A stretch of DNA of 64,000 nucleotides from a virus (IMGVR_UViG_3300025892_000008), one strand, 5' to 3'; shown: positions 14,719-62,582, counted from the stretch's first letter. Translations and numbers: made by a program. Notes: generated by a model from the letters alone, not told the origin.

Positions 14719-14870
14719 ACACCGACCGGTATAGTACGTATGCGCATATAGTGTATTTTGATTGGCTAGTGGTCTAGAATCACCACCCAGAAATGAAAAG
14801 TACTCCACCACAATTTTTTGCGCAGCAATTTTTTTATCCCTGTAGACCCATTTGGGCAATAAATATACAC

Positions 14871-14993
14871 ATGCGCAAGTTAGTAACACATCGACGCAAT
14901 CGCAAACCAGACCAGTATGTGGTATATGAAAATGGTTGGGTAGTTGTAGTAACTTGCAATCTCTTAATAGCAAGGAAATTCATGAATGATTAA
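14871..14993 (+). CDS. hypothetical protein, leaderless start
   Basis: TAAATA-N5-ATG. Confidence 0.55.
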   Translation: MRKLVTHRRNRKPDQYVVYENGWVVVVTCNLLIARKFMND

Positions 14994-15201
14994 ACAATAC
15001 TGTGTATACACCCGAGACTTTGTGAACACGCCACTGCTGTTCAACCGTATACAAGAACACAACGTAAAGTTTGAAGCACACATCAATAGAACACGTTTTT
15101 GGTTGGATACCAGTCTTAAACAGCATAGAACATTCTATCTACACTATAGAGACTACATGCACTGTGTAGATGCAGAAACGGATCACTCTAGCGGCACATA
15201 A
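14986..15201 (+). CDS. hypothetical protein
   Basis: Coupled ORF; FEAHINRTRFWL motif. Confidence 0.6.
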   Translation: MIKQYCVYTRDFVNTPLLFNRIQEHNVKFEAHINRTRFWLDTSLKQHRTFYLHYRDYMHCVDAETDHSSGT

Positions 15202-15416
15202 TGTACACACTGCACCTAGCCTACCCAGACAACAAACTGCACGACTACTGTGATAACATTACGCACAGTGCAGTAATAGAACTGTTTGTAAAGGGCATAG
15301 ACAGCAGTCAAAACAGTCATAATTCAATTATACTACACAGTGCTAAAGACTGTACACTAGCATGTGCTATACTAGGTTCAAGTGAGTTGTACACTGTTAA
15401 AATAGCGTCTAAATAG
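15201..15416 (+). CDS. hypothetical protein
   Basis: TAATG translational coupling. Confidence 0.55.
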   Translation: MYTLHLAYPDNKLHDYCDNITHSAVIELFVKGIDSSQNSHNSIILHSAKDCTLACAILGSSELYTVKIASK

Positions 15417-15585
15417 CCTATTACAAGCAGTATACTGTGTTACTAGTTAAATATTATTAAGAACTTGTTGTTATAATACACACTTCAAGTCAGATAGATA
15501 CGCACTGTTATGTGCTAGATACAAACAGCGTGTGTTAAATTAGACAAACAAGTTCTACTCTTTTGCGCAAAGGATAAATACAATC

Positions 15586-15795
15586 ATGCAAACAAGACTC
15601 ATAGCAAAAGCTCGCAACGAAACTACCAAACTAACTGTACAGAATCGCAATCAGTACAGCAACAACTTCACTATGTCACAAAAGAAACTGGCACAAGACT
15701 TTGCTGATCAATATGCAGCAAAACTAAGCAGACGCACTGGTGACACATGGACAGGATTTGTTGAAGAGTATACACCTGGCACTAACGTAGCCTAA
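15586..15795 (+). CDS. hypothetical protein, leaderless start
   Basis: TAAATA-N5-ATG. Confidence 0.65.
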   Translation: MQTRLIAKARNETTKLTVQNRNQYSNNFTMSQKKLAQDFADQYAAKLSRRTGDTWTGFVEEYTPGTNVA

Positions 15796-15986
15796 ACATT
15801 CCCACTAACACACTAGCAGCACCGTGACGACAGTCTCCGGGGCCACGAGAAAAACCGTTACAAATTTGCTGCGCTACCGCTTGCTGCTTCGCAGCTCTAA
15901 TCTCGCTTACCGCTACGCGGCAAAATCTGCGCTTACGGCTTCGCCGCTTTTATGCCTGCACCTGCACTTCATCGTTAAATATAGTC

Positions 15987-16601
15987 ATGCAGATGATACA
16001 GATATTTGGCACATGGATTGGGGTAGCCCCTATAGTTAATTTGGACACAGGTGCTGCACTAGAGTACTTGCAGAGCATACCAGAAACTGACAAGCAGTCT
16101 GGCACTAATGGTGCAGTCACACAGTCGCAACGCTTGCTGGATGCACCGGTATTTGCACAGACTAAATCAGAACTTGAACTGCTTGCATTGGAGTATGTAC
16201 ACACTCAAGGACATACAGTCACAGGTGTACAGATAGGCAACAGTTGGGGTAACACACTGAGAAAGTCGGAACCAATACACACGCATACACATCCAAACAG
16301 TTATGTAAGTGGTGTGTTTTATCTTACAGATGGTGCTCCATTAAACTTTCACAATCCACTGCTTACAGAAGATCTATTCATGGTTAGGCCTACAGTACTA
16401 TGGCAAGAAAACAATCCGCACACTTGGCAGGTACTCAAAGTGCCCATCAAGCAAGGATACGTAATACTGTTTCCCAGTAGACTGAAACACCATGTAGACC
16501 CTAGCGACACAGACTATAGATACAGCATAGCATTTAACACCATGCCCATTGGAGCAATAGGTGACGATACCAAAGAACTTGACATAACCGGAATACAATA
16601 A
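15987..16601 (+). CDS. 2OG-Fe(II) oxygenase (TIGR02466-like)
   Basis: HTHPNSYVSGVFYL, FPSRLKHHV, RYSIAFN. Confidence 0.85.
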   Translation: MQMIQIFGTWIGVAPIVNLDTGAALEYLQSIPETDKQSGTNGAVTQSQRLLDAPVFAQTKSELELLALEYVHTQGHTVTGVQIGNSWGNTLRKSEPIHTHTHPNSYVSGVFYLTDGAPLNFHNPLLTEDLFMVRPTVLWQENNPHTWQVLKVPIKQGYVILFPSRLKHHVDPSDTDYRYSIAFNTMPIGAIGDDTKELDITGIQ

Positions 16602-16602: not shown

Positions 16603-17463
16603 ATGAGTACACTACACACATTTGGTTGCAGTATAACACAAGGCTTTGCACTACCTGATGTAGTTGCACCTCCACTAACAAGTGAACAACAACAAGAACT
16701 AGACAGAGACAATCATTGGTCGGACGAAATGTTAAGCACACCCAGCAAGCATGCTTGGCCTCAAGTGCTTGGAGATGCTCTTGACATGACTGTGGTAAAT
16801 CATGCTCGACGTGGCAGTTGCTTTCAGCAGATTGCTAGACAGTGTGCAGTTGCACAACAACAAGTACAACCTGATGATACAGTGGTTGTTATGTGGACCT
16901 ATCTAGGCAGAGTCAGCATGCAGTGGCCTGCTAGAACATCAGTGCCATTACATCATTATGTAGATGCTAAAAAAAGTCTAAGCACAGTGCTGTGGCCCGG
17001 ATTCAACAAACTGTTTGGATTGAGTGCAAGTACTGCTAGTGCTAGAGGCAGCAATATTGTAAGTGCAGTTGATGACGAACTATACAAGTTTATACACGAT
17101 AGCACAAACACCACGTTTAATCCACTAGGAGTATACGACAGATATCATAACAGTCTATTGCTACAAATTATGACTGATGGCTTTTTGCGTTCACGTACTA
17201 AAAATGTTATACATCTAAGTGTTGAAACAGATCCATATATAGAGCAACTTGAACGTGCAGCACTAGACCTTGATCCTACACTGCAAGAGCCATGGGAAAT
17301 ACCCGATCCTAGAACATGGTATACGATACCTGTGGATCATACCAGTTGTGAAGCAATACTAGATCCTAGTATACCAACAGCAGAAAATGACATGCATCCA
17401 AGTGTAACACATCACAAAAACTTCGCAAACTGCGTATATAAAAAGTATTTTAACAACCGCTAA
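16603..17463 (+). CDS. SGNH/GDSL hydrolase-like protein
   Basis: TFGCSITQG block I, N.ARRGS block II, C-terminal D.HPS..HH. Confidence 0.7.
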   Translation: MSTLHTFGCSITQGFALPDVVAPPLTSEQQQELDRDNHWSDEMLSTPSKHAWPQVLGDALDMTVVNHARRGSCFQQIARQCAVAQQQVQPDDTVVVMWTYLGRVSMQWPARTSVPLHHYVDAKKSLSTVLWPGFNKLFGLSASTASARGSNIVSAVDDELYKFIHDSTNTTFNPLGVYDRYHNSLLLQIMTDGFLRSRTKNVIHLSVETDPYIEQLERAALDLDPTLQEPWEIPDPRTWYTIPVDHTSCEAILDPSIPTAENDMHPSVTHHKNFANCVYKKYFNNR

Positions 17464-17472
17464 ATACCCTGT

Positions 17473-17697
17473 ATGAATTGGGAGATTAGATTAGCAATAG
17501 CATTGATGTTAGTTCTGGTCCTTCTCAGTGTACAAGCCTGTGGTCAACGACCCATACTAGATAAAATAGAAGAAGCTCATCAGCAAGAACACGCTGTTGA
17601 AGATAGCACACTACAAACAAGTCCTCCAAACTTCCAAGGTATAGCAAACGCATTAGGCTGCGTATTTGCACCAAATACCTGTAATAATCCCCAATAA
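17473..17697 (+). CDS. secreted or lipoprotein-like hypothetical protein
   Basis: Hydrophobic N-terminus ending in QAC. Confidence 0.6.
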   Translation: MNWEIRLAIALMLVLVLLSVQACGQRPILDKIEEAHQQEHAVEDSTLQTSPPNFQGIANALGCVFAPNTCNNPQ

Positions 17698-18139: not shown

Positions 18140-18158
18140 TATTTAAATAAATATATAC

Positions 18159-18380
18159 ATGATAAGAAAAATCAATGTATTTTTTAGCCTTGCTCCAGCA
18201 CCAGCATTCCTATTAGGGTTTATATACAGTGTGATGAGTCAAGGACACTTGCATCATGCAAATTGGGAAATGCCTGCTATGTGGCTGATAATGTGCTTTG
18301 CACACATTTCACCGTGGCTGATGTGGTATCAACAAAAGAAGTATCAAAAAGTAAAAGTCTTTCCAGACAAGCAACAGTGA
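18159..18380 (+). CDS. small membrane protein, leaderless start
   Basis: TAAATA-N5-ATG; two hydrophobic segments. Confidence 0.65.
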   Translation: MIRKINVFFSLAPAPAFLLGFIYSVMSQGHLHHANWEMPAMWLIMCFAHISPWLMWYQQKKYQKVKVFPDKQQ

Positions 18381-18589
18381 TAGTGTCCATCTAGTACTGC
18401 TATCATTTCCCAGTAGTAGGTGCTCAAAATATCTTCACGCCCTACACACCAAAGTATGTCATCGGCACAAACATTTCCAGCAGCACCTTTTATAAACACA
18501 CGCCAAAGTGGACGTGGAGGAGAAACTGAATCGTCCTCGCTACATACTTCTTGGCGCCATTCAAAATCGCCTATTGTTTCCCAATCCAT
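18344..18589 (-). CDS. hypothetical protein
   Basis: TAAATA 4 nt upstream of the ATG on the minus strand. Confidence 0.5.
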   Translation of the reverse strand: MDWETIGDFEWRQEVCSEDDSVSPPRPLWRVFIKGAAGNVCADDILWCVGREDILSTYYWEMIAVLDGHYHCCLSGKTFTF

Positions 18590-18746
18590 ACTGTATTTAA
18601 CTGTTTTGATATTCTATAAGCCTAACGTAAAACGTCTGTTTTAGTGCTTGTAGTGTTTGTGGTGCAGTGTATAGTAAACACCGCTGTATGACGCTTAAAA
18701 TGCGTCTTAGACGGTGTTTAGCATAGGTTATATAGTGCTATTAACT

Positions 18747-19049
18747 TTACTTTTTAAGTTTTTTAATTAGTAAAGGTAAGTAGACAAATACTGCAACTAT
18801 TCCCCAAAAGATTGCTAACACAGTTGCGTAAAACTTCCAGTTAGTATAGTCTACTGCTATACCTATTGTTACACCACCTATCCATACGTAGTCTAGTGTA
18901 GCATGAAACTTCTTCCACGCTGCGCCGTGTTTAGCAATCAGTGCATCACGTTTGTTTGCAAACCAAGGATGTACATGACGCATTATAACGAACCCTTCGT
19001 TTAACGTCATTACAGTAAATCCTATAAAAAATATAATTGATCCGATCAT
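18747..19049 (-). CDS. membrane protein, leaderless start
   Basis: TAAATA-N5-ATG at 19049; three hydrophobic segments. Confidence 0.7.
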   Translation of the reverse strand: MIGSIIFFIGFTVMTLNEGFVIMRHVHPWFANKRDALIAKHGAAWKKFHATLDYVWIGGVTIGIAVDYTNWKFYATVLAIFWGIVAVFVYLPLLIKKLKK

Positions 19050-19057
19050 ATGCTTAT

Positions 19058-19321
19058 TTATTGAGCAGTAGTATAGAGTCTTACTAATCTCCATGCCTTT
19101 ATCCAAAAATCAGAAATTTGTTTTTTATTTTGTGCAATTTGTTCTTTACCCTTTTGCCAATTTTCTTTTTGGTACTCAACTATTTCGTTCTTTTCTTCTA
19201 CGATAAATTGATTTACTTTGTTGTTGATTGTTTTTGTTTCATTTGCACTAGTTGAAGTTACTAATATTACAAATGCAATTGTTATTGTTGCTACTATTGT
19301 CCACATTGTTTTTGATGTCAT
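19058..19321 (-). CDS. membrane-anchored hypothetical protein
   Basis: AAAGGA RBS; N-terminal transmembrane helix. Confidence 0.65.
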   Translation of the reverse strand: MTSKTMWTIVATITIAFVILVTSTSANETKTINNKVNQFIVEEKNEIVEYQKENWQKGKEQIAQNKKQISDFWIKAWRLVRLYTTAQ

Positions 19322-20152: not shown

Positions 20153-20866
20153 TTATTGTAAGATTGGTGCAGTTTCTAGGCTTAATTCTTGGTCTTCAAG
20201 ATCTCTAATTTCTTGTGTAAGTTTGTCTATCATTCCTAAATTTCTAAGAATTTTAAACACAAGATTCTCAACAGACCATTCACCTGCTTTTGCAAGCCCT
20301 GCTTTACGCATCTGTGTAATCTTTGTTTTAACTTGTCTAAGTTTAGTAATATCTTTACTTAGAAGTGCAGTTTCTATATCATGATGAATACTGTTCTTCT
20401 TAGCCTTTACTGCCGCGTCATCAACTTCTGGTTTTACTTTTTTAGGTTTTTCTAACCACTGATCAGTAACTATACTATAAACACCTGTTGAATGGTGTTC
20501 TTCTTTTGATCCTTGTACATAACATTCTACAGGTAAACCTTTGATAGTGATGTTGTGTTCTTCTGCCCATAATGCTTTTTTAGCATTGAACAATTCACGT
20601 TCTTTTTCATCAGGCAGTCCTTTTACAATAATATGTAAATCTAAATCACTGTATTCAGTCCACATATAGTTTGCATTTGATCCTGTAATTGTATAGTTGA
20701 TTACTTCTATGTCAATACCAATAAACTCTTCAAATACTTTTGCAATTTTAATTAATTGCTCTTTTATCTCAGGTTTAAGAGTGTCATTTTTCCATAGTTT
20801 AGGATTCAGTCTTCTATTGACTGTAACGAAATCTGCTTGCTCGAATAGTAGGTCCTGTATGCGCAT
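20153..20866 (-). CDS. Pol-beta superfamily nucleotidyltransferase
   Basis: ITGSNANY.WTEYSDLDLH (GS..DxD) plus VECYVQ third acidic residue. Confidence 0.75.
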   Translation of the reverse strand: MRIQDLLFEQADFVTVNRRLNPKLWKNDTLKPEIKEQLIKIAKVFEEFIGIDIEVINYTITGSNANYMWTEYSDLDLHIIVKGLPDEKERELFNAKKALWAEEHNITIKGLPVECYVQGSKEEHHSTGVYSIVTDQWLEKPKKVKPEVDDAAVKAKKNSIHHDIETALLSKDITKLRQVKTKITQMRKAGLAKAGEWSVENLVFKILRNLGMIDKLTQEIRDLEDQELSLETAPILQ

Positions 20867-20870
20867 ACTA

Positions 20871-21122
20871 CTATTTAGCCCACATTAAGTAATATCTATT
20901 TGCTGTCTCTTTGTTGAAAAATTCTACTATTAATCTTTTGCCGCCACGGAAAAATTCTAAACTTAATTGACATTTATCATGGGGTTGTCTGTTTAGCCAG
21001 TTTATATGATCTACACCACATTCTTTGTGTACAGCCGGCCAATCTATATCAAAGTATTCGTCTGGATGATTATTTCCGGTCCATTGGTACAATGTAACTT
21101 TAGTGTTCCTCATCATCATCAC
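20871..21122 (-). CDS. hypothetical protein
   Basis: ORF coupled to the helicase stop. Confidence 0.6.
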   Translation of the reverse strand: MMMMRNTKVTLYQWTGNNHPDEYFDIDWPAVHKECGVDHINWLNRQPHDKCQLSLEFFRGGKRLIVEFFNKETANRYYLMWAK

Positions 21123-24410: not shown

Positions 24411-25442
24411 TTACATAGTTGCTTTTTCATTTATTTTCTCCAACTTATTCTTAAACTTCTGCTTTGCCATGTTAAGTTTTATTGATCCTGCTTGTGCAGT
24501 TTTAATAGCATCCATCATAACAAATAGTTTACCATACTTTATTACAGCGTCTGCTATATCTTTAACATCATCTTCCCAATTAGGAAAAGCAACACTCCAA
24601 CCATATTCAATTGACTTATTAATTAAGTTTATTCCTGCTTCATCTTGATCTGGAATAACAATTACTTCATGTCCTAGTCCTTGGATAATTCTATATTGTT
24701 GCTCGCTTACATTGTTTGTAAGTAATGCTACACCATCGACAGATAATGCATCGAAAGGACCTTCTGTAACAAATATATATTTCTGATCTTCTTCTTGTGC
24801 ATCAATGTTATATACAAAACTATTGTGATGATCACTTAGATATTTAGGCCTTCCGCTTCTTACCTTTCTTGCTGTGTTACCAACTGTTTTACCTTTGTAA
24901 TAGAAAGGAACTATTACTCTGTCTTGGTATCCTTCTTGAGGGCTCCAATAAAAGTCTTTACTTGTTGGATCAAATCCTCTGTCATAGATATATGCAACAA
25001 CTTTTGCAAACATTTCTTCAAGTTTTTTATTGCCAGCAAAGTCGGAGTCGAGCCATTCAGCAATTGGCAAACTGTTATCAGGAAGTTTCTTTTCTGCAAA
25101 TGATATCCTGACTTGTGATTCTCTTGGCGTGTATTCAGGAGATTCTGTTTTCAATGCTTCGAATATCATAACATTGATAGTATCTTCTGATGCGCCTAGC
25201 CATCTACATAAAGATTTAAACTTTTCAGATAACGGTCTGCCAGGTTGCCAACTAGCAGTATACTTACAATTGAAACAGTTAAAAACTACACCTGAATCAA
25301 ATCTAAGTCCACCACGCTTACGCTTGTCAGTACTATGTCCGCGATGATGGCAACACGGAGCATTAAAACTAGTCCAACCGCTTGGATTACTTTTTGCCCG
25401 AGGCGGAATAAGTGTCTGAAATGTATCTAGAACCAAAGTCAT
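24411..25442 (-). CDS. DNA primase (Zn-finger plus TOPRIM)
   Basis: CCHH..CFNC zinc finger, EGPFDALS, PDQDEAG. Confidence 0.9.
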   Translation of the reverse strand: MTLVLDTFQTLIPPRAKSNPSGWTSFNAPCCHHRGHSTDKRKRGGLRFDSGVVFNCFNCKYTASWQPGRPLSEKFKSLCRWLGASEDTINVMIFEALKTESPEYTPRESQVRISFAEKKLPDNSLPIAEWLDSDFAGNKKLEEMFAKVVAYIYDRGFDPTSKDFYWSPQEGYQDRVIVPFYYKGKTVGNTARKVRSGRPKYLSDHHNSFVYNIDAQEEDQKYIFVTEGPFDALSVDGVALLTNNVSEQQYRIIQGLGHEVIVIPDQDEAGINLINKSIEYGWSVAFPNWEDDVKDIADAVIKYGKLFVMMDAIKTAQAGSIKLNMAKQKFKNKLEKINEKATM

Positions 25443-25454
25443 ACATGTATTATA

Positions 25455-26351
25455 CTATCTATATAATACTTTGTCAACTGTTCCTGTGTTATTTTCGTCC
25501 GGAGTATGCTTAATTCTAAACCAATTATACTTTCCTGTAACATTATGGAATTCATTTAAATTGGCTGCTGTGATTGTAAATGTATTAATATTTGTCCATG
25601 ATCCTTCAATTGGATTACCACCTTCTCCCAAACTTCCTTGAAGTATTACATCTCCAATATAGTTGTTGTAGTAAAATTGGAATGTGTGTAAACTTTGTGG
25701 TGTAGACATTCTTGGATTTGCTTCTATTGTGCTACTAATAAAATATTCTTCGTATCCTGATGTATTATAATTTTGTGCAAAGTTTGGACGTGGACTATCT
25801 AATGGATCTCCAGATGATTTCTCTGATGGTACATCAAAATTAGTAATTTTTCTGAATGTGTCAACAGTTTTAGTATCATAAGGTTTACCTTCCATACCAC
25901 CTATTATTTCTATAGTGCCAATAGCACCGTATTGACTATCCATGTATAGCGGTGTCTTTGACTCAACTTTGTAATCAGTACTATCTACGTTAGTTCTAGT
26001 TTCTTTGTGGAAACTATATGAGTAATATCCTGCTTCTATGTCTAATAATTCTTCTTCTGTAATAGTAGCGTATACTCTGCCTACACTGATGTCATCTACA
26101 CTACAATCTTTTCTTACAACTAAATCTTGCGTCTCGTTGTTCACTAGATTAAAAATAATAGTGCTGCCTGTAGCATTATACGCTTTTTGATCGCCGTTTC
26201 GTAGTTGCAGATCAATGCGATTGTCTGATCCTCTATAGACCTTTAGATTACGATTGTATACCATTCTGTTTCTCTCCGCAGTCCAAGTTGCTGTGTCACT
26301 TGTGTAAACATCCAACTTGTTTGGATATAAATATATTGAGTTAATTTGCAT
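25455..26351 (-). CDS. putative virion structural protein (beta-rich)
   Basis: Long beta-rich ORF with late TAAATA upstream; no catalytic motif seen. Confidence 0.5.
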   Translation of the reverse strand: MQINSIYLYPNKLDVYTSDTATWTAERNRMVYNRNLKVYRGSDNRIDLQLRNGDQKAYNATGSTIIFNLVNNETQDLVVRKDCSVDDISVGRVYATITEEELLDIEAGYYSYSFHKETRTNVDSTDYKVESKTPLYMDSQYGAIGTIEIIGGMEGKPYDTKTVDTFRKITNFDVPSEKSSGDPLDSPRPNFAQNYNTSGYEEYFISSTIEANPRMSTPQSLHTFQFYYNNYIGDVILQGSLGEGGNPIEGSWTNINTFTITAANLNEFHNVTGKYNWFRIKHTPDENNTGTVDKVLYR

Positions 26352-36052: not shown

Positions 36053-36083
36053 ATTGTTATTATAACGTAGTTGAGCTAAGAAG

Positions 36084-36944
36084 TCAATGACTTACTTGCG
36101 TTTTAATAAACTTTTCTAATCGTTTGATAGGAATACCTTGTTGAATTTCTTCAACTGTCCACTCACAATGTGTAAGTTTAGTAAACCATAAAAGTCTATC
36201 ATCAGGCAGTTTAGGGTCTTCAATATTATCTATAGTATCACTTACAGGATATGCTAGGCTGCTCTTGTCTGTAATTACCGGCGTGCCTGCAATTGCAGCA
36301 AGTATCGGAGGTCCACTGTTATGATTTATAACTACATGATAATTATATACAATATCAAAGTTATCATATGTGCCACTTACTTGTATAGGTTGCTGTCTTG
36401 TTACATTTGTAAATTCATGTTCAATACCAGGCATCGGCGACCTTGGATGCGGCCTAATAACAATAGGGCGATTTGTAATTTTTCTAATCTTATCTATTGT
36501 TTGCATAGTCCAATCAGTCATAGAAGTCATACCTTTCCACTGCAAACTTTTTTCGTGCTGTGTAGCAATTAATATCTTGTTGCTTCTATTGACGTTAGGT
36601 AAAGACATTTGTAATCCTAACTTCTTAGGTCTGTCTACATCGATATCCTCGTTAGCACCAAATTCTCCTAAGCCATTGATATGGTTAAGACATATACGCC
36701 AAGTTTCATTTCTTTTTAAATTACCTACTTCTATAATTATAATAGGTTTATTTTGTGCAATACATGCTTCGTAAATTTGTTGATTAGGACTCATTCTTCC
36801 ATGCCACAACACACTCCAAATAACAGTAACATCTTCGTTATTATCTACTATTTGGTGTCCTTGTGCTTTAAGTCCTTGTTCAAATGCATCAAATATGCTA
36901 GGACTGTTTAGTGCTCCGTGCTGTCGGAAAAGTTTGAAACGCAT
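36084..36944 (-). CDS. KpsS/KpsC-like (Capsule_synth) GT-B protein, paralogue 1
   Basis: RPHP, NHNSGPPILAAIAGTP, C-terminal W..EEI..G. Confidence 0.65.
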   Translation of the reverse strand: MRFKLFRQHGALNSPSIFDAFEQGLKAQGHQIVDNNEDVTVIWSVLWHGRMSPNQQIYEACIAQNKPIIIIEVGNLKRNETWRICLNHINGLGEFGANEDIDVDRPKKLGLQMSLPNVNRSNKILIATQHEKSLQWKGMTSMTDWTMQTIDKIRKITNRPIVIRPHPRSPMPGIEHEFTNVTRQQPIQVSGTYDNFDIVYNYHVVINHNSGPPILAAIAGTPVITDKSSLAYPVSDTIDNIEDPKLPDDRLLWFTKLTHCEWTVEEIQQGIPIKRLEKFIKTQVSH

Positions 36945-42533: not shown

Positions 42534-43299
42534 GTCTTTCTATATCCTCTTCTATACATTCGCTGCCCCATTGTATCTCTAACACATGTGCATTCACACC
42601 GCCAGGGTTACTTGCTTGATGCCAAACTTCTTTATCTATTTCATATGATCTTGTATGTGGTAATAAATGCACATCATCTACTCTATTATCCCATTCTGTT
42701 TTAATTTTTACAACACCTTGAAGTATTGACCAAACTTCTGATCTCTTAAAATGTTTTTGGTCGCTTAAACTTTTACCTGGATATATTACAAGCTCTTTTA
42801 CTTTGTATCCTGCTTCTGGATTGTGATCTAACACTCTCCAATATCCCCAATCTCTTTCTGTCTTTTGTGTCTTCCATTCGTCTAGAATCCAACTACTTGA
42901 ATTCATTTTGTTTGTACCACCAACACCAAATGCAAATTCTATATTAGGATGATCGCCGTAAATTTTGCTCTCAGGTGTCGTTAAATCTGTCCTGTCACCA
43001 CCATTAGCAAAAACATAATTACAATCTGCTGTTGTCGCCATTAGTTTATATATTGCACCACATGCACTATCGTCATCGTCATTAAATGACAATACTCTAT
43101 CAACAACTTCTAAACTGTTGATAATAGCACACCTGTCTTTGAATGTCATAAATGGTCTGCCTTTTTTACGAGTCAGCCATTCATCAGAATTTAATCCAAT
43201 AACTAGTTCGTCTCCTAGTTCTTTTGCTGCTTTGAAATATTCAATGTGTCCACTATGCAGTGGGTCGAACCCACCTGTTACTAATACTATGGTTTTCAT
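42523..43299 (-). CDS. cytidylyltransferase-like (HIGH) plus cupin fusion
   Basis: TGGFDPLHSGH, NGGDR; C-terminal ERDWGYW..SDQKH cupin. Confidence 0.85.
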   Translation of the reverse strand: MKTIVLVTGGFDPLHSGHIEYFKAAKELGDELVIGLNSDEWLTRKKGRPFMTFKDRCAIINSLEVVDRVLSFNDDDDSACGAIYKLMATTADCNYVFANGGDRTDLTTPESKIYGDHPNIEFAFGVGGTNKMNSSSWILDEWKTQKTERDWGYWRVLDHNPEAGYKVKELVIYPGKSLSDQKHFKRSEVWSILQGVVKIKTEWDNRVDDVHLLPHTRSYEIDKEVWHQASNPGGVNAHVLEIQWGSECIEEDIERRET

Positions 43300-43335
43300 A
43301 GTAGTATTTATGTGCGTAGTTAATGGGAGATAAAA

Positions 43336-52106: not shown

Positions 52107-52117
52107 ATTATTATTTA

Positions 52118-53707
52118 TCAAAAACCGCCGCTTATGAATATAGGCATTGGGTACTGGTCTTCGGTCATTCTCTCCGTCATTTTTTCATATATTTTAGGAT
52201 CCCAATCAGCCAATTGACTTGCCATGCGTATGATTAGTAAGCAAGCACTGACTAAATCGTCATGTTCGCCTGTTTTAGCACCGTATCCTACACCGTGTGC
52301 TACAAATGTCTTTAACTCTGATATTAACGGTTTACTATTAATCTTCAACTTGTTTCTTTCTAGTGCATTTTTAAAAGTGCTACAGGCAGTAATCTTTGTT
52401 TTGTGTGTGGTGTTAAATCCTTTTCTAAATTTTCTTACATGTCCTTTTCTCATAGGTTCACTTAGGAATAGCCCGTGGAAGTTTTCTTCACCTATATCTT
52501 TAATAACAACTAATGCTGCTTCGCCTATGGTGTTATTCTCACAACTGTAATATATTGTAGGATTTGCATTGCCGCCGGCAGTTTGTTCATCATAAATGTA
52601 TTTTAAGATGCTCTTTAAATGTCTTATCTGTTGCTGTATAGGTGTAAGATTGTGTCTCCATTCTCCAACCTGTTCCATTGCAGGCATTTCAAATATCTGT
52701 ATGGCTGAGTAGTCGCCACCAGTTCCTAGTGATGGATCAAGTGATAACAAATAAGTTGCTTTAGGATTAATTTTTTTATACCAACGTGTTTGCCCCATAT
52801 TTTGAATTGGTTCTTTGCCTTCAAGTTCAGCAAGTTTCACACTATTAATTAATGTTTCATCAAAGATTAAAAATTCGCAATCAAACTCACGACGGAATCG
52901 TTCGTCTCCAATTTTGGAACGTTCTTCTGCTGCCCATGCATCATCTCTATCTGGATGCTCTGTCCATGGAGCAAAATAAGGATAGAAGCCGTTGGTTCCT
53001 ACAACGTTGTCATTACCAAATTCGTCAAACTTTTTATTTGCTTCTGTCCAAATCATAGCAAACTGATCTTCATCTGAGTTTGGTGTGCTTGTAACAATCG
53101 CTTTACCACCTGTTGACAGTGTAGGAGAAAGTGCAGTCCAAAACTCTTTGGCTTTTTCTGGTGGTTGCACAAACGCAAACTCATCACAGTATATTAATGA
53201 AAGTGATTTACCACGTCCAGTATCTTCTGTTGTGGTTGTTGCTTGTATTCTACTGCCGTTATCAAATTCAATTGTGTTTCTGTTGTATGTATAGATACCA
53301 GCACGAACAAAGTCAGGCAATGTTTCATACCCGTATCTAAATCTGTTCATGATGTCCTGCGCACCTGTATATTTGTGTGCAGCAATTAGCACCTGCGATT
53401 CAGGAGTAAACATTGTATACCATAATAAATATCCAGCAGCACAGGTTGTCTTGCCCATCTGTCTTGGTAGCATAGCAACACAGTATCTGTTTTCTGCATA
53501 TGCTTGAATTAGTTCTCGTTGAAATCCATAAGGTACAAACTTCATTGAACCTTTTACAGGGTGTTGAATGGTTAGAAAGTTTTCACAAAAGTATAATGGA
53601 CCCGTGATAGGATCCATACAAGCCTCTAAGTGCTTGACTTCCTCTAGTGTATATTTTTGCTTTTCATGGGCTTTCTTAATCTGAACGCCATCTAAACTCT
53701 TTGCCAT
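52118..53707 (-). CDS. terminase large subunit (gp17-like)
   Basis: PRQMGKTT, YCDEFAF, STPN, FRREF.CEF, LDPSLG.GGDYS, HDDLV. Confidence 0.95.
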   Translation of the reverse strand: MAKSLDGVQIKKAHEKQKYTLEEVKHLEACMDPITGPLYFCENFLTIQHPVKGSMKFVPYGFQRELIQAYAENRYCVAMLPRQMGKTTCAAGYLLWYTMFTPESQVLIAAHKYTGAQDIMNRFRYGYETLPDFVRAGIYTYNRNTIEFDNGSRIQATTTTEDTGRGKSLSLIYCDEFAFVQPPEKAKEFWTALSPTLSTGGKAIVTSTPNSDEDQFAMIWTEANKKFDEFGNDNVVGTNGFYPYFAPWTEHPDRDDAWAAEERSKIGDERFRREFDCEFLIFDETLINSVKLAELEGKEPIQNMGQTRWYKKINPKATYLLSLDPSLGTGGDYSAIQIFEMPAMEQVGEWRHNLTPIQQQIRHLKSILKYIYDEQTAGGNANPTIYYSCENNTIGEAALVVIKDIGEENFHGLFLSEPMRKGHVRKFRKGFNTTHKTKITACSTFKNALERNKLKINSKPLISELKTFVAHGVGYGAKTGEHDDLVSACLLIIRMASQLADWDPKIYEKMTERMTEDQYPMPIFISGGF

Positions 53708-53721
53708 ACTAGTATTTATAG

Positions 53722-53748
53722 AAGGAAATAGGCTCCGAAGAGCCTATT
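53722..53748 (-). terminator. intrinsic terminator with UUCG loop
   Basis: AATAGGCTC-TTCG-GAGCCTATT-TCC. Confidence 0.7.
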
Positions 53749-53771
53749 TGGATAGTATAAAACGTACTAAC

Positions 53772-54962: not shown

Positions 54963-55553
54963 TTAATTACTCCCTACAGGACTCTTGACCCCTGCTTTGT
55001 CTTGTTTTAATTTTGGTGTGTCTTGATAAACATCTGCTTTTAGTTTATCATGCCCTAGTTCTTTTTTTCTTGCTTTTGCTTCTTTAGAAAGTTCTTTTAA
55101 GAAACCTTTATTGAAGTCATCTCCAAAGTAATCCTTTTGCTTTACGTTCATGCCATCTTTATATTCGTTGTCATGTAGTAATGCACCTTCGTAATCTGCT
55201 TTGCTTCCCATAGTAATTTGATCAATTTCTGTTGGGCTTGCACTATTTCTAACTTTGTAATAACCTGCTTCACAACATTCCATTTCAAAAATTTCTTTTT
55301 CAATTTCTGAAGTAGTAATTGGATACTCAGTCATTACATCAAATGTGTGTACCTCCATGTTTTTCAACGTTGGAAAATCATGTGGTACTTCTGTAACCGG
55401 AGTAGTTTTCATTTGTTCAAATTGCATAATACCGCGATTATCAAGTCTTGCTTTTAAATCGTCTGCAAAACTTTCTGGTAAATCACCTGCAACTTTTACC
55501 TTAAAACTATAGGTTTTTTTGGCTTCTGATAGATATTGTGTGTACGTCTTCAT
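54963..55553 (-). CDS. putative internal head protein with capsid-targeting-like N-terminus
   Basis: MKTYTQYLSEA resembles T4 IPIII MKTYQEFIAE. Confidence 0.6.
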   Translation of the reverse strand: MKTYTQYLSEAKKTYSFKVKVAGDLPESFADDLKARLDNRGIMQFEQMKTTPVTEVPHDFPTLKNMEVHTFDVMTEYPITTSEIEKEIFEMECCEAGYYKVRNSASPTEIDQITMGSKADYEGALLHDNEYKDGMNVKQKDYFGDDFNKGFLKELSKEAKARKKELGHDKLKADVYQDTPKLKQDKAGVKSPVGSN

Positions 55554-55561
55554 GTAAGTAT

Positions 55562-56050
55562 TTATTCCTTTTCGCTTAATTTCTTAATTAATTCATTGCG
55601 ATCAAGCATTACATAGCCCTTTCCATCGAGAACATCATTAGAATCTTCGGGTGAATCTTGGTCCAATTTAAATTTTTTCAACTGTAAATCTACTGCTTTT
55701 AGTTTTTTATCTACTTTTGCAGTTTTAGCATCTATAGCATTTTTAAGCATACTACTAGCAACTTCAAATATTCGTCCACTATAACGTACTTCTACGTTCA
55801 TGCCTAAATCCATTAGATCATCATATGCTTTTTCTGCTTTATCTGCAAGACTATCTAAATCTTTTTCTTCTAAAGCATCTAGTTCGTTTATCTTAGGCAA
55901 ATCGCCTGTTATTTTAGTTACTTCTTTGTAACTTTCTTCAATGCTTTTAATTTGTTGAGGTGTTACTTCAACAGGAACTGACTCTTCTGCTTGCTTTTGG
56001 GCAGTTTTTTTATCTTCCATATTAAACAGTTCTTCTAATTTCTTTGTCAT
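55562..56050 (-). CDS. putative terminase small subunit (gp16-like)
   Basis: R..EVASSMLKNAIDA..coiled coil..DRNELIKKL. Confidence 0.55.
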   Translation of the reverse strand: MTKKLEELFNMEDKKTAQKQAEESVPVEVTPQQIKSIEESYKEVTKITGDLPKINELDALEEKDLDSLADKAEKAYDDLMDLGMNVEVRYSGRIFEVASSMLKNAIDAKTAKVDKKLKAVDLQLKKFKLDQDSPEDSNDVLDGKGYVMLDRNELIKKLSEKE

Positions 56051-56058
56051 ACTATTAC

Positions 56059-56499
56059 TTATCGTCTCTTGTTGCCAGTGTGAAAAATATCTTCTTCATT
56101 TACAATACGGAATCTAACACGTTTTTGTTTACACCATGCTCCTGCTGCTTCCCATTTTGCCATATTTTTAATATACTGTTCTTGATTGAATCTGCTTTTT
56201 CCAACATGTTCTCTCATAGTTTGGTTTTTAGGTTTTACTTCTATAACTTCCGCTCTCTTCTTTCCACCTTTTTGCAAATATACAACAAAAAAGTCTGGAA
56301 CATATATTGAATACTTTCCTGTTAATGGATCTCTATATGGTATCTTGATACTTTCACTTGCCCATGTTTCTACACCTGGATGTTCATCCAGCATTCTCAT
56401 AAAAACAAACTCCCAACTACTTCTAGCAAGGGGTTTTTTTGTACCTACATATTTTGCAGGATTCTTCATTTCGAATCTTCCTTGTGCAAACTTAGGCAT
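56059..56499 (-). CDS. head completion nuclease (T4 gp4-like)
   Basis: RSSWE, WASESIKIPY, YVPDF, IEVKP. Confidence 0.88.
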   Translation of the reverse strand: MPKFAQGRFEMKNPAKYVGTKKPLARSSWEFVFMRMLDEHPGVETWASESIKIPYRDPLTGKYSIYVPDFFVVYLQKGGKKRAEVIEVKPKNQTMREHVGKSRFNQEQYIKNMAKWEAAGAWCKQKRVRFRIVNEEDIFHTGNKRR

Positions 56500-56906: not shown

Positions 56907-57981
56907 CTAATTTTTTCGGTGTGCCTTTAGTAGTTGAGTTGCTAGGATCATTTTTATTAAACACTGAGCCTGCAATTCCGCTTATTGTATTTGCAACTGC
57001 TTGTGTACCAACTGGGCTAGTAAGTATATTTGTTGCTTCTGATAATAATCCTGCTTTGCTTAATCCTTTAGCACCCTTATAAGTATTTACTGCTTTAATT
57101 GCAGTGCTTAAAAAATTTCCTCCAGAACTAAATGCTGTACCATCTCCAACTGCACCAAACACAGATTCTAATCCATCTAGTACTCCACCTGCTCCTAATA
57201 AATTTCCTGTGCCGCCGCCTCCGACAGTTAAAGGTCCAGGTGTATTATCATAATGTAATGTAGCAAACCCTTTAGGTTCGCCTTCGCTAACTGTTCCTGC
57301 AGAGTAAACAACTGCTTCATACTGTAAAGTCATTGTGCTTTCAGCAGGCTCAGATGTTGCTGCATAATCTCTATTGCCGTGTTGCCAAGTTTTAATTTTA
57401 GGATTGACAAGTGTATATCCTATAAATCTTCGTCTGCCCATTGTATACAAAGTTACACTTTTAAATAGTGGACTACTAACATCGTTATCTAATCCATATC
57501 TAAACTTATCAAATTCTGTACCTGTTGCTCTATAAGGATCTGTTTTATCACTATACGCTGAACTAGGTAAGTTTCTATCTTTAACATAATAACCATAGTA
57601 AATTGCCCATAATGCATTTATAACACCTTGGTTATCATCGTGGAATGTAAAACTTACATCTTCATAATTAATATTTTTGTAAACAATTCTTTTTCGATTA
57701 TACTGATTAAAAGTTTCTGTGTCAAAATTAAACTTTGGTAAGTCAGCAGTCTTTACTAGTAATCCTGTTTCGTCAGCATGCTTTGCTGTAAAATTAGCAG
57801 CCTTGTGTGCAGATGGATCTAATTCAATTTTTAAATAATAATTAAATTTCGTCTTTGGTGCAAGACGCATATTATCATCAATAAACAATCTAGTAGCATG
57901 TGTATAGTTCGCTACTCTACCTTTAGGATTTGTAATACCTGTGAATACGTCTGTCAGAAATCTAGTAAACTTATTTGCCAT
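56869..57981 (-). CDS. tail-tube-fold baseplate/tail tube initiator (gp54/gp48-like)
   Basis: ADLPKFNF..NQYNRKR..Y..VSFTFHDD; adjacent to the tail tube gene. Confidence 0.7.
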   Translation of the reverse strand: MANKFTRFLTDVFTGITNPKGRVANYTHATRLFIDDNMRLAPKTKFNYYLKIELDPSAHKAANFTAKHADETGLLVKTADLPKFNFDTETFNQYNRKRIVYKNINYEDVSFTFHDDNQGVINALWAIYYGYYVKDRNLPSSAYSDKTDPYRATGTEFDKFRYGLDNDVSSPLFKSVTLYTMGRRRFIGYTLVNPKIKTWQHGNRDYAATSEPAESTMTLQYEAVVYSAGTVSEGEPKGFATLHYDNTPGPLTVGGGGTGNLLGAGGVLDGLESVFGAVGDGTAFSSGGNFLSTAIKAVNTYKGAKGLSKAGLLSEATNILTSPVGTQAVANTISGIAGSVFNKNDPSNSTTKGTPKKLGGSGTGRQDIGQ

Positions 57982-57997
57982 ACTAGTATTTAGCCAT

Positions 57998-58029
57998 AAA
58001 AAAAGCCCGGGGTTTTAAGCCCGAGCTTT
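57998..58029 (-). terminator. intrinsic terminator after tail tube gene
   Basis: AAAGCTCGGGC/GGGCTTTTTTT on the minus strand. Confidence 0.7.
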
Positions 58030-58053
58030 CTAATATCAATACTAAAATTAGTA

Positions 58054-58698: not shown

Positions 58699-61600
58699 TT
58701 ATATCTCCCCTGTGTTCTTGACACGCAACGGAATGTATATAAACTCAATAGCCTTGACTGGTTCAATCGCAATATCAACATATAGTTCGTTGCGGTCGAC
58801 TCTAGCCGGAGTATTGTTTGTTTCATCACATACTACTGCGAAATCGTAAATTGCTCTAAGACCAACTAGTTCAAGAAGTAGACTTTCAACTGCCTGTTTT
58901 ACTTCATCTCTAGTAATCTTGTCATTTGGTTCAAAGATATACGGACGAGCCAATTTGTTAAGTTGACTACGCATGTATACAACTAAACGTGCTACGTTTA
59001 TTCTATCTAGTGCAGAAGCGTTTCTTGCTCTAGTTTTTTGTCCGTAGTTTACTAACCCTACACCATTAAAGAATGTAATTGGATTAACTTTTAGATCATA
59101 CAATGTATCTCTTTGTCCTTCGTTAAGTGCAACTGTTTGGAACTCGCCTGTTGCTGCATCAATAAATCCTACTGCTGTAGCATTTGAAATGCCGCCTCGT
59201 CTTGTTCCTGCAGGTGCAAACCATGGAAACGATACTTGATCACTTAGTGCAATAGTTCTCATCATCATGTGTGATGCTGGAACAACTGCGTTTGAACCAC
59301 CTAAGTCTGTTGTAAATCCATTTGGATAAAACGCACCTAAGTATTCATCGTATGTTACTAAGCCGTCATCGCCATTGTCTGTTACTAAGGAAGCATTTGT
59401 TCCCCAGTTAGTCAATGTAGTTGCATCTGCTGCTAATCTAAGTGGTGTATCACCAATAACAAACGCTGTTAAGCCTCTGTCAATGTTTAGATTAACTAGG
59501 TTGCTCATTAGCTCAGGATAACCAGGAGCAGCAATTATGTTAAAGTTGCGTCTCTCTTCGTCACGTACCTGGCTGCTTGTATCAACTGCACTCTTCATTC
59601 TTTGTACAACAACTTTACGTTGTGCTTTTCTACCGAATGAACCTGATCCGTCTTCGTTGTTACCTGATTCAGTAACCCAACGGTCAGTTGCATATGCACC
59701 CATCGCTTCGTCGTTATTGAAACGTTGGTTATCTGCTGTGATATCAATGTAGTTGTTAGCATAACGTTTAACGTTACCGCCACTTCTACGTAGATTCCAT
59801 AAAAGCATACCTTGTGGGTATAATGCAGGATCTGGAGCATCTGGATCTAAGAAGTCTACTTTTTGTAAATCCTTAATTGTTGCTGCTGTGTTACCAGTAG
59901 CACCAGTTGAACCATAACGTGCATCACCAAACAATACACCATCTTCAGATGTTTGATCAGTTTTATCAACTAAAACCCATCTTTCTGAAACTGGTCCTGA
60001 TTGGTTACCGTCATACTTGTAAATTGTTGGATAGTTTTCAATATCTGCTGTTGAAATCCAAAGGTCGCCTGTAACAGTTGTTCCTGCTACATACGGATTA
60101 GAAGCACTTACAGTTGGAACATAACCAACTCTATCGCTTGCTGCTTCAGTGTATGGACTTGTTGCACTTCTGTAACCTACCCAAGTAGTACCATCGTGTA
60201 TCATCATGTCTACATCTGAAAACTCTGGGTTGTACCAAAGTTGTCCGTCTGCTGGCTCTGCTTCTGGATTGTCTGAACTAGCATAAAAATCACTTGATGA
60301 AAGTGGCTGCCAGTTTGAAGCAAGATATCTATTTTCAGCAGTTGAATCATCAGCACCTGGTGCTAATTGACTTGAACCTGCTGTTAATGATGCGTCTGAC
60401 AAGTTGTAGAAGTTAGCAGTACCTGCTGCTGTATCAATGTTATATGGTGTAAACAATGCACCAAGAGCATCTCTTCCTACATCACGAAGTCTAATTTCAC
60501 CGCCTGTTTTGTGTGAAATTGTAATTTCGTTATTTGCTGTAACAGCCGCTTCAACATTTGTAAAGCCTGCTGCGTTAATAGCCGCTGCCATTGTGTTAGC
60601 ATCTGAACTTGAACCTGAACTTGAAAATGTAACATTTATTGCTGCATTTAATGCTTCTTGTCCTTGAATTGATTCTTGGATTTCAAATGTGTAATCATCT
60701 GCTATCAATTGTGTTGCAACAACTGCTGATGTAACTGTTGTTACTCCAGTGTTAGCTCTACGCCATGTACGGAACACTGCTGTTGCTGGAGATGAATCAT
60801 ACATGCTATGCTCAAATGCATTAGTTTGTACAAACAAACTGTCTGCTGCTAAATTAATGCCTGCTCCGCTTCTGTCTAATGAATAAATTGCTGAATGTCC
60901 GCTTGCATATAATGGAGCATCATATGATACCCAAGTTGCAGTTGCTGAATTCCACTTTGCTGCTCTCCATCTTGAACCGTTGTTTGGTTCTGTAGTTTTG
61001 ATCCAAACTGATCCTGTTGGTCTAGCGCCTGCATCTGTTCCAGGAGTACCTTTCCACTGTGGCACAAGTGTGTGTGGCGCCTGGTAAAGTTCTGGACCTT
61101 TGTATGTTACTGGTGAAATTTCTAATTCAGTTAAGTCAGCATTGTTTGCTCCAATAACAACTGTGTTTGCATTTGTATTAGAAGTTCCATCAGTGTAAAT
61201 GTAAATTCTATCACTTACATTCTTTGCTGTAGTACCTGCAATACTTAGACCGTTAATTGTTGCTACAATATCATCTACTGAATCACTGCCGCCTATTGCA
61301 ACTGTTGTACTATTAATAGTAAAGTTACCTGCTGCTGCTGTAATTTTAGATCCTGTTAATTGTGCTGTAATTACTGTTGGAATACTTGCTCTCCACTCCT
61401 GAGAACCTACTAGTACCCAATTACCTGCTGCAACACCTGCTTGTGTGTTACCTGGTGATTTGTAATACATTCTTGCTGGGTCTTTAGAAAAACTAAATGA
61501 CCCTGTTGCTGCTGTTCCTACAGTTTCAAATACAACTGCATAGTCACCAATTGATCCTACTGATCCTAGTGGAGCGTTATTTGAAATCTTCGCTGCATCT

Positions 61601-62118
61601 GCATCAGTTAAAACAATAGGAGTCTTAGCAGCAAATTTTTGTCCGCCTGTAGTGCTTAATGCTGCACTATTCCATTGTTGGATACCCCATGCTGTAGATC
61701 CAGTGTTAATCCACCAAGTTCCATCAGGTGGGTTCGCTCCCGGAGCCTCTGCTGTTCCTGTTAGTTGCCCTAAATCAACATTTGCTCTCGTTACGAACGC
61801 TGCGTTAGATACACCTAGTAAACTGTATGCTGCCAATAGGCCATATTCATTAAGTTCGCTACCATGAATAGGTGTATTGCTCGCTGTCTTTTCGAAGTTA
61901 GGAACTCCAAAAAGATCTACTAATTCTTTTTGACTTGTCACTTTAAATGCATTCCCTGCATTCGCCGCCGAAGTTGCTGAAGCAACGCCAGTGCCTGCGG
62001 CATTAGTTTTGTCTTGGGCCGTTGCTACTATAATAAGTGGAGTTGTTCCGGGTTCAGCCGGAGTATAAAAACTCTCATCTATTACACTAACTTCTACGCC
62101 GGGTGATGTAAGTGCCAT
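58699..62118 (-). CDS. tail sheath protein (gp18-like, enlarged)
   Basis: LTSPGVEVSVIDES N-terminus; WFAPAGTRRG, VNPI, RINVARL, PVKAIEFI C-terminus. Confidence 0.95.
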   Translation of the reverse strand: MALTSPGVEVSVIDESFYTPAEPGTTPLIIVATAQDKTNAAGTGVASATSAANAGNAFKVTSQKELVDLFGVPNFEKTASNTPIHGSELNEYGLLAAYSLLGVSNAAFVTRANVDLGQLTGTAEAPGANPPDGTWWINTGSTAWGIQQWNSAALSTTGGQKFAAKTPIVLTDADAAKISNNAPLGSVGSIGDYAVVFETVGTAATGSFSFSKDPARMYYKSPGNTQAGVAAGNWVLVGSQEWRASIPTVITAQLTGSKITAAAGNFTINSTTVAIGGSDSVDDIVATINGLSIAGTTAKNVSDRIYIYTDGTSNTNANTVVIGANNADLTELEISPVTYKGPELYQAPHTLVPQWKGTPGTDAGARPTGSVWIKTTEPNNGSRWRAAKWNSATATWVSYDAPLYASGHSAIYSLDRSGAGINLAADSLFVQTNAFEHSMYDSSPATAVFRTWRRANTGVTTVTSAVVATQLIADDYTFEIQESIQGQEALNAAINVTFSSSGSSSDANTMAAAINAAGFTNVEAAVTANNEITISHKTGGEIRLRDVGRDALGALFTPYNIDTAAGTANFYNLSDASLTAGSSQLAPGADDSTAENRYLASNWQPLSSSDFYASSDNPEAEPADGQLWYNPEFSDVDMMIHDGTTWVGYRSATSPYTEAASDRVGYVPTVSASNPYVAGTTVTGDLWISTADIENYPTIYKYDGNQSGPVSERWVLVDKTDQTSEDGVLFGDARYGSTGATGNTAATIKDLQKVDFLDPDAPDPALYPQGMLLWNLRRSGGNVKRYANNYIDITADNQRFNNDEAMGAYATDRWVTESGNNEDGSGSFGRKAQRKVVVQRMKSAVDTSSQVRDEERRNFNIIAAPGYPELMSNLVNLNIDRGLTAFVIGDTPLRLAADATTLTNWGTNASLVTDNGDDGLVTYDEYLGAFYPNGFTTDLGGSNAVVPASHMMMRTIALSDQVSFPWFAPAGTRRGGISNATAVGFIDAATGEFQTVALNEGQRDTLYDLKVNPITFFNGVGLVNYGQKTRARNASALDRINVARLVVYMRSQLNKLARPYIFEPNDKITRDEVKQAVESLLLELVGLRAIYDFAVVCDETNNTPARVDRNELYVDIAIEPVKAIEFIYIPLRVKNTGEI

Positions 62119-62246
62119 TTACTTTTCTCCTGGTAATAATTCAATTCATTACGTAATGTATTGTTATATTGTATTTAGCGGAATGATTAAAAAATGGTGC
62201 GTTAAGGCGCTTTAGACAAAGGGATAGAAAAGGTGTAAATACATGT

Positions 62247-62582
62247 ATGAGACCTTTATGCAAGTGCGGTTTAAGACCCAAAGCAGTAAACTATAAGAAA
62301 TACGGTAAAACGTATTATAGAAGTCTATGTGAAGCATGTTCTAAACATGGATTATATCATGGTATACCTAGATGGTATAGAGCAGGTTACAGAATCAAGA
62401 AACAGTGTGATAAATGCGGCCACAAATCGCCGCACAAAGAAGTATTTAGAGTATATCATGTTGATGAGAATCTAGATAACTGTAAACACAGCAATTTAAA
62501 AAGTGTATGTGCTAATTGCCGTACTGTACTATCTAAAGAAGGTGTTAAATGGAAACAGGGCGATTTAGTTGCTGATTATTGA
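62247..62582 (+). CDS. HNH-like zinc-binding protein
   Basis: CxC, CxxC, CDKCG..YHVDENLDN..NL..VCANC. Confidence 0.7.
   Translation: MRPLCKCGLRPKAVNYKKYGKTYYRSLCEACSKHGLYHGIPRWYRAGYRIKKQCDKCGHKSPHKEVFRVYHVDENLDNCKHSNLKSVCANCRTVLSKEGVKWKQGDLVADY

Follow-up and report, generated by a model that had tools for sequence, protein, structure and literature searches.

Late messages of bacteriophage T4 carry leaders with a Shine-Dalgarno (SD) sequence. The T4 late promoter TATAAATA, which spans −13 to −6, is read by the sigma factor gp55 together with gp33 and the gp45 clamp (Geiduschek and Kassavetis 2010, PMC2988020), and T4 tolerates change at −13, namely "A(-13) in place of T" (PMC2988020). The word ATAAATA was proposed earlier as the late promoter of phages CBB and GAP32, alongside a gp55-like sigma (PMC5259590). 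Early transcripts of phiKZ and the transcripts of AR9 are leadered. The classical leaderless mRNA is that of lambda cI transcribed from PRM, where the −10 hexamer lies 6–7 nucleotides (nt) before the AUG, there is no SD, and the AUG is required; studies of phiYS40 and P23-45 reportedly describe leaderless Thermus phage transcripts as well. For the Thermus phages YS40 and Lalka27a, 5' ends have been mapped and the transcripts are mostly leaderless (bioRxiv 10.64898/2026.04.20.719267). T4-type late promoters fused to start codons, or leaderless, had no prior description in the literature that we searched, where the matches were citations of gene finders or work on Thermus phages, phiKZ, and AR9. 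Here we analyze a 64,000-nt stretch of viral DNA (IMGVR_UViG_3300025892_000008, referred to in full as the window) in which the hexamer TAAATA, in all probability a T4-type late promoter's −10-type box, stands directly before the start codons of structural and other genes at a distance that would place the RNA 5' end at the AUG.

The window derives from an uncultured marine jumbo myovirus. The large subunit of its terminase (TerL) is 53% identical to that of the Pseudomonas phage PA5oct, 52% to that of the Sinorhizobium phage Phosso, 48% to that of Atu_ph07, and about 42% to those of Rak2-like phages such as GAP32; the closest cultured relatives by TerL thus stand at 42–53% identity. Many more relatives are uncultured, IMG/VR supplying 350 for TerL and 446 for primase. 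T4-type replication and recombination genes (DnaB-like helicase, primase, UvsX, UvsY, and a gp32-like single-stranded DNA-binding protein) are present, as is a morphogenesis block encoding sheath, two tube-like proteins, head closure, TerL, and virion proteins. Small + strand genes with GGAGCG SD sites make up a block at positions 1–14,700, and the remainder lies mostly on the − strand; the G+C content of the region is 34–38%.

TAAATA occurs 49 times on the two strands of the window, and 12 of these copies stand exactly 5 nt 5' of an ATG (TAAATA-N5-ATG, where N is any nucleotide), compared with 1.92 ± 1.44 expected from 100 dinucleotide shuffles, the largest of which gave 6. Every other TAAATA-to-ATG spacing from 0 to 15 nt was found at most twice, and ATG (12) was the commonest triplet 5 nt after the hexamer, followed by TAA (4). 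All 12 ATGs open reading frames (ORFs), of 40 to 982 amino acids (aa), and the genes so headed include those for TerL, a tail-tube-like protein, and two virion structural proteins. The original prediction had placed the hexamers at 14860, 15575, 15976, 18148, and 62236 (+) and at 19055, 20872, 43305, 52112, 53713, 55559, and 57987 (−), and every one of these coordinates was correct; likewise present, all at ORF starts, were the variants TAAGTA-N5-ATG at 56056 (−), TAAATA-N6-ATG at 17461 (+), and TAAATA-N4-ATG at 18594 (−), and TerL (52118–53707) was rightly counted among the genes headed by the motif. The abutting starts are all ATG, no GTG or TTG ORF of useful length being found 4–6 nt after TAAATA in the window. 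An A precedes the hexamer at 8 of the 12 sites, and the full 8-mer T4 box occurs at only one, that of TerL. An SD sequence between box and ATG, which the original prediction had reported missing, was absent from every window spacer checked; at three sites AAGGA or AAGGT lies just 5' of the hexamer, 12–13 nt from the ATG.

In a region of 34–38% G+C such a word might recur as an artefact of composition, and in the cultured A/T-rich relatives TAAATA-N5-ATG is indeed not enriched (3–15 matches per genome, near the 2–12 of the reversed-pattern control). For the window, however, no shuffle reached 12, the excess is a spike at a single spacing with all copies at ORF starts, and the orthologous sites are conserved (see below), so the probability that chance produced the pattern is in our view negligible. 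Of the 15 hexamers of composition A4T2, TAAATA is the least frequent in the window, with 49 copies as compared with 81–127 for the others and a Markov expectation of 85–92, and at least 17 of the 49 are sites described here. It is scarce within genes, on sense and antisense strands alike, which fits a DNA-level signal whose stray copies would be harmful.

Conservation was assessed from the upstream regions of five orthologous genes, taken from as many as 80 related contigs with protein identities of 40–100%, and distinct sequences were counted. At four of the sites (those of TerL, the 982-aa structural protein, the 196-aa virion protein, and the tube-like protein) the hexamer was TAAATA in 150 of 151 distinct upstream sequences and TAAGTA in the other. 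The gap to the ATG was N5 in 124, N4 in 14, N7 in 11, and N8 in 2, so that 91% had 4–5 nt, while the bases within it drift among relatives save for the T directly before the ATG; GGAG, GAGG, or AGGA occurred in none of the 151 spacers. By site, TerL gave 36 TAAATA and 1 TAAGTA among 37 distinct relatives (28 N5, 9 N4; no SD), the tube-like gene 37 TAAATA of 37 (32 N5, 5 N4), the 196-aa gene 37 of 37, down to 40% protein identity (34 N5), and the 982-aa gene 40 of 40 (30 N5, 10 N7). At the fifth site, that of the 162-aa gene, 36 of 41 distinct relatives have TAAGTA (21 with N4 and 15 with N5); in the remaining five the junction consists of TAAATA, an 18–21-nt leader, and a weak SD. At two junctions a leadered TAAATA replaces an abutting TAAGTA or an SD-only arrangement in some relatives. 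The N5/N4 peak recurs over whole related contigs of 210–364 kb: G001 has 16 matches at N5, G007 14 at N5 and 11 at N4, G008 20 and 10, and G009 8 and 7, with no more than 5 at any other spacing in each.

Upstream of TerL and the tube-like gene, folding revealed hairpins that a simple terminator scan had missed. Their stems show compensatory changes among relatives, a run of T follows the TerL stem, and both TAAATA boxes lie 7 nt 3' of the hairpin, in or just after its T/C-rich tail. As both genes lie directly behind conserved terminators, each would need a promoter of its own within about 20 nt of the ATG. Codons 2–4 of the two genes vary synonymously among relatives (in TerL, Ser is AGT or TCA), and the sequence upstream is that of the terminator; the synonymous variation just after the ATG indicates that it is the true start, and the annotation of Phosso TerL begins at the same N-terminus, MAKS. 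This check covered TerL and the tube-like gene rather than the small ORFs.

These terminators bear on the possibility that TAAATA is a late promoter whose abutting ATGs are nevertheless translated mainly from longer transcripts, produced by read-through or from upstream promoters. Ribosomes would then initiate without SD at an A/U-rich unstructured region (S1-type) or reinitiate after the upstream stop, and the tight spacing would reflect genome compaction. Consistent with this, five hexamers overlap or directly follow the stop codon of an upstream gene (52112, 55559, 56056, and 20872 among them), the AAGGA-type words lie 12–13 nt upstream of the ATG at three sites, and one RNA-library contig, which may be DNA, bridges 54139–56250 and with it two abutting junctions. 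Longer transcripts do not, however, sit well with conserved terminators placed directly before TerL and the tube-like gene; nor does compaction account for a spacer whose bases drift yet whose length stays at 4–5 nt in 91% of distinct sequences, or for the different gaps, N5 and N6, of two promoter types (see below). We therefore regard translation mainly from longer transcripts as unlikely.

Several features support the original prediction of a likeness to T4 late promoters. As in T4, the −10 region holds one A/T-rich box, which is identical to T4 positions −11 to −6 and precedes structural genes on either strand; at the TAAATA sites we found no conserved −35 element, the upstream sequence consisting of terminator stems, runs of T, or the end of the preceding gene. 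Unlike T4, only the 6–7-bp core (A)TAAATA is conserved. A search for a late sigma gene, as had been proposed, was successful: a gp55-like sigma is encoded in all five of the large related contigs searched, whose TerL proteins are 77–90% identical to that of the window, with matches to phrog_12791 at E 1e-79 to 1e-86 and to the T4 gp55 family, phrog_234, at E ~1e-25. The sigma gene of the relatives is SD-led and adjoins a gp47-like phosphoesterase gene; T4 gene 55 is likewise near gene 47. The clade sigma is longer, 280–315 aa (e.g., L085:1438-2280, −) as compared with 185 aa for T4 gp55. T4 gp55 aligns only to positions 141–248 of the 286-position family model, and the N-terminal region of the clade protein, about 140 aa, has no Pfam match; this region could replace gp33-type functions. 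The accessory proteins of T4 were not convincingly found in the relatives' contigs: gp33 (phrog_254) gave one marginal match (E 0.03), to a 144-aa ORF that lies in G001 at a distance of 3.3 kb from the sigma gene, and none in the four other related contigs, all of them fragmentary; the T4 gp45 model phrog_223, which also matched no control genome, had no match in related contigs that are 38–76% complete.

A fixed distance from the AUG and the lack of an SD are also what one would expect if TAAATA-N5-AUG were an RNA-level, non-SD ribosome-binding motif rather than a promoter, and A/U-rich leaders can enhance initiation. Known A/U-rich enhancers, however, need no invariant hexamer, and an RNA signal explains neither the avoidance of the hexamer on both strands within genes nor its divergent back-to-back copies in intergenic regions. 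The hexamer also occurs 20–53 nt 5' of SD-led ATGs in the window, in its relatives, and in the cultured relatives, and it matches the T4 and CBB late box in a clade with a gp55-like sigma. An RNA-level role is accordingly very improbable. Given the leadered copies with SD, the CBB and GAP32 precedent, the sigma gene, the both-strand avoidance, and the absence of −35 conservation, TAAATA is very probably a promoter element and not an RNA signal. By T4 numbering the hexamer corresponds to −11 to −6, and an N5 gap would thus put +1 on the A of the ATG.

The same geometry was found with promoters of the sigma70 type. Upstream of the DNA primase gene, a 400-aa gene, and a 75-aa ORF, a −35 box and a TATAAT-like −10 box with a 17-nt spacer are followed by N6 and the ATG (Table 1), N6 being the distance expected for a hexamer at −12 to −7. 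In nearly all of about 60 distinct sequences from relatives, down to 41% protein identity, the primase promoter is kept with its −35 box, 17-nt spacer, TAnnnT −10 box, and 6-nt gap, while the bases of the gap vary. Leaderless geometry is thus not tied to the late class; and we infer that two promoter classes, each with its own gap to an ATG lacking an SD, point to transcripts starting at the AUG, other explanations being difficult to find. Other sigma70-type sequences were noted as well. A perfect 12/12 TTGACA-N17-TATAAT lies on the sense strand inside the tail-tube-like gene (57697–57725, −), with no ATG at leaderless distance. Another perfect copy (48834–48862, −), whose 17-nt spacer contains TAAATA, lies upstream of the gene for the gp32-like single-stranded DNA-binding protein, and a transcript from it would have a leader with a AAAGGAGG SD. 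Early genes at 1100–12850 (+) share a TATATAACAATTA-like word 10–15 nt 5' of the GGAGCG ribosome site, and the TTGACA/TATAAT promoter at 1568 has ATGGAGCG behind it at N6; its RNA would start with AUG and, immediately after it, the SD tag of the next ATG.

The sigma70-type sites also bear on the interpretation offered by the original prediction, which had read the late genes as leaderless and envisaged a programmed switch from SD-led early messages with GGAGCG sites to SD-independent late messages, tied to hairpins directed against ribosome-binding sites. Its first part, in which the sites behave as T4-type late promoters and N5 fits +1 on the A, was supported; the switch was not. Although the early block at 1–14.7 kb has many GGAGCG sites and no abutting TAAATA, and structural operons open with an abutting TAAATA, inner late cistrons have retained SD sites, some of them of the GGAGC(G/A) type that tags the early genes (GGAGCA before 53772–54206, GGGAG before 54209–54961, and GGGGAG before 58054–58695). 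Nor are late genes SD-independent as a class, as leadered late promoters exist, among them that of the tail sheath gene with its CAGGAG; nor is the geometry late-specific, for it is also given by the sigma70-type promoters of primase, conserved across the clade, and of two other genes. By a crude heuristic, 39 of the approximately 68 ORFs beyond 14.7 kb are SD-led and 14 have an abutting motif. We consider a programmed switch quite unlikely.

In the cultured relatives CBB, GAP32, PA5oct, Atu_ph07, and Phosso the same hexamer stands before structural genes, and CBB has a gp55-like sigma (PMC5259590). In PA5oct, GAP32, Phosso, and Atu_ph07, however, (A)TAAATA is followed by a 20–30-nt leader with an SD. 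Since the counts at N5 are near the control in PA5oct, GAP32, Phosso, Atu_ph07, and T4, in contrast to the box that abuts the start codon here, the abutting layout is by this comparison a trait of the uncultured marine and aquatic clade and not of the wider T4-related group. In PA5oct, TerL and two neighboring structural genes have a terminator or a run of T and an ATTTA(G/T)AT-like word directly before the ATG, with no SD; as a second abutting motif for that phage this word was rejected, ATTTAKAT-N0-8-ATG giving 26 matches and the reversed control 29. The annotated start of PA5oct TerL falls inside a terminator-hairpin stem (L081:5953-5982; PA5oct record 128846–128875). An ATG 27 nt downstream (MAAEDY...), right after the run of T and without SD, aligns with the start of TerL in the clade, and its position suggests that it is probably the true one.

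Taken together, these results favor a mechanism in which host core RNA polymerase carrying the phage gp55-like sigma would read TAAATA at about −11 to −6 without a −35 element. At about 15 window genes the distance from box to ATG is 5 nt (in rare cases 4 or 6), and initiation about 6 nt past the box would start the RNA on the A of the AUG or no more than 1–3 nt away. Ribosomes would then translate the promoter-proximal cistron from its 5'-terminal AUG, as a leaderless mRNA, and downstream cistrons would use ordinary SD sites; the sigma70-type promoters, with TATAAT-N6-ATG, would follow the same design. The motif, its constant spacing and conservation, the order terminator–promoter–ATG, the avoidance of the hexamer at other places, and the sigma gene of the relatives are observations; the holoenzyme that reads the box, its late timing, the precise +1, and the way the mRNA is translated are deduced from them. 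We assign a probability of roughly 0.65 to this explanation, that a late box abutting the ATG yields leaderless first cistrons, as the sigma70-type promoters would, and that this is a clade-wide habit not confined to late genes. As in YS40 and Lalka27a, most promoter-proximal genes, including late genes served by a phage-specific promoter class, would be transcribed from the initiator codon onward; those phages are unrelated, however, with TAGGGT as their late motif and a Thermus host known for leaderless mRNAs, and their 5' ends are mapped whereas those given here are predicted. Classical cases such as lambda cI are single genes, in contrast to the genome-wide, clade-conserved pattern seen here.

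A number of points weigh against this explanation. The 11 N7 and 2 N8 gaps among the 151 sequences predict a leader of 2–3 nt or more; several sites lie within strings of co-oriented genes, where read-through transcripts would carry the same ATGs; and on such transcripts AAGGA or AAGGT, at its three sites, could act as a weak distant SD. The gp55-like sigma was found in the contigs of relatives and not in the window. With a marginal gp33 and no gp45 match, the activation mechanism may differ from that of T4, and with a longer sigma besides, so could the distance from box to start in the holoenzyme. A pyrimidine at −1, present at 12 of 12 window sites and in relatives about 95% T, was tried as a start-site signature and dropped; it does not discriminate, since a pyrimidine is usual at that position in the SD-led starts of the window as well. 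Leaderless translation is predicted from geometry. Marine metatranscriptome runs contain 72–100% of the sampled words of 52001–62000, but in the form of assembled contigs they reveal neither where transcripts start nor on which strand, and DNA may be among them.

Coordinates of the individual sites are collected in Table 1. Besides the abutting form, the window has leadered TAAATA promoters; for the tail sheath gene the predicted leader is about 48 nt. TAAATA boxes often form divergent back-to-back pairs, 10–60 nt apart, that would drive genes on both strands (window 18140–18161, 36956–36973, and 62172–62249; G001 25850–25894, 223384–223422, and 264675–264711). Downstream of the 982-aa gene (49088–49122, −), one further TAAATA runs directly into a 13-bp terminator hairpin and overlaps it, and a transcript from this box would start within the 5' arm of the hairpin.

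Table 1. Predicted promoter–start codon junctions and associated hairpins in the window
Feature	Position	Strand	Remarks
TAAATA-N5-ATG, TerL gene (52118-53707)	53705..53718	-	
Terminator-like hairpin, cUUCGg loop, ending 7 nt 5' of the TerL TAAATA	53726..53749	-	fold -15 kcal/mol, z -4.0
TAAATA-N5-ATG, 370-aa tail-tube-like gene (56869-57981)	57979..57992	-	
Terminator hairpin with U-run, ending 7 nt 5' of the tube-gene TAAATA	58000..58031	-	fold -18.4 kcal/mol, z -2.95
TAAATA-N5-ATG, 196-aa virion protein gene (54963-55553)	55551..55564	-	TAA is the stop of the upstream gene
TAAATA-N5-ATG, 982-aa structural gene (49158-52106)	52104..52117	-	directly 3' of the TerL stop codon
TAAGTA-N5-ATG, 162-aa gene (55562-56050)	56048..56061	-	TAA is the stop of the head-closure gene
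TAAATA-N5-ATG, cytidylyltransferase / mannose-6-P-isomerase-like gene (42523-43299)	43297..43310	-	
TAAATA-N5-ATG, nucleotidyltransferase-like gene (20153-20866)	20864..20877	-	
TAAATA-N5-ATG, 100-aa gene (18747-19049)	19047..19060	-	phrog_31495
TAAATA-N4-ATG, 81-aa gene (18344-18589)	18587..18599	-	
TAAATA-N5-ATG, 73-aa gene (18159-18380)	18148..18161	+	divergent intergenic region; opposite-strand TAAATA at 18140
TAAATA-N6-ATG, 74-aa gene (17473-17697)	17461..17475	+	
TAAATA-N5-ATG, 2OG-Fe(II) oxygenase gene (15987-16601)	15976..15989	+	
TAAATA-N5-ATG, 69-aa gene (15586-15795)	15575..15588	+	
TAAATA-N5-ATG, 40-aa ORF	14860..14873	+	weakest site; region of ambiguous coding
TAAATA-N5-ATG, 111-aa HNH-like gene (62247-62582)	62236..62249	+	divergent from the sheath promoter
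Leadered form: TAAATA (62172-62177), 53 nt with SD CAGGAG, ATG of tail sheath gene (58699-62118)	62116..62177	-	
Leadered form: TAAATA, 23 nt with SD GGAGAC, ATG	36942..36973	-	probable true start of the 36084-36998 ORF
Sigma70-type TTGACA-N17-TATAAT-N6-ATG, DNA primase gene (24411-25442)	25440..25477	-	no SD
Sigma70-type TTGACT-N17-TATAAT-N6-ATG, 400-aa gene (34850-36052)	36050..36087	-	no SD
Sigma70-type TTGACA-N17-TATATT-N6-ATG, 75-aa ORF	13927..13964	+	

T4-type late promoters and leaderless phage mRNAs are each already known; an abundant clade of marine jumbo phages with both promoter classes placed so that the message would start at the AUG has no precedent in the literature searched. 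One speculation, to which we give little credence, is that translation runs through two channels, leaderless promoter-proximal genes escaping whatever acts on the GGAGCG tag, be it hairpin RNAs or a RegB-like nuclease. If so, tagged messages could be shut down at will while the first cistrons for structure and packaging were still made, possibly with the help of a change, induced by the phage, that biases the ribosome pool to initiation at a 5' AUG. Confirmation of the 5' ends would provide a simple rule for recognizing gene starts and the heads of operons across hundreds of contigs from uncultured jumbo phages, and would mean that gene finders expecting an SD misplace such starts, as has seemingly happened for PA5oct TerL. 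It would also predict a host that translates leaderless mRNA well, which would narrow the host candidates, and would make the natural N4, N5, and N7 variants available for studying start-site choice by gp55-type holoenzymes. For the phages themselves, it would mean that a subset of genes is set apart from regulation via the GGAGCG ribosome-site tag.

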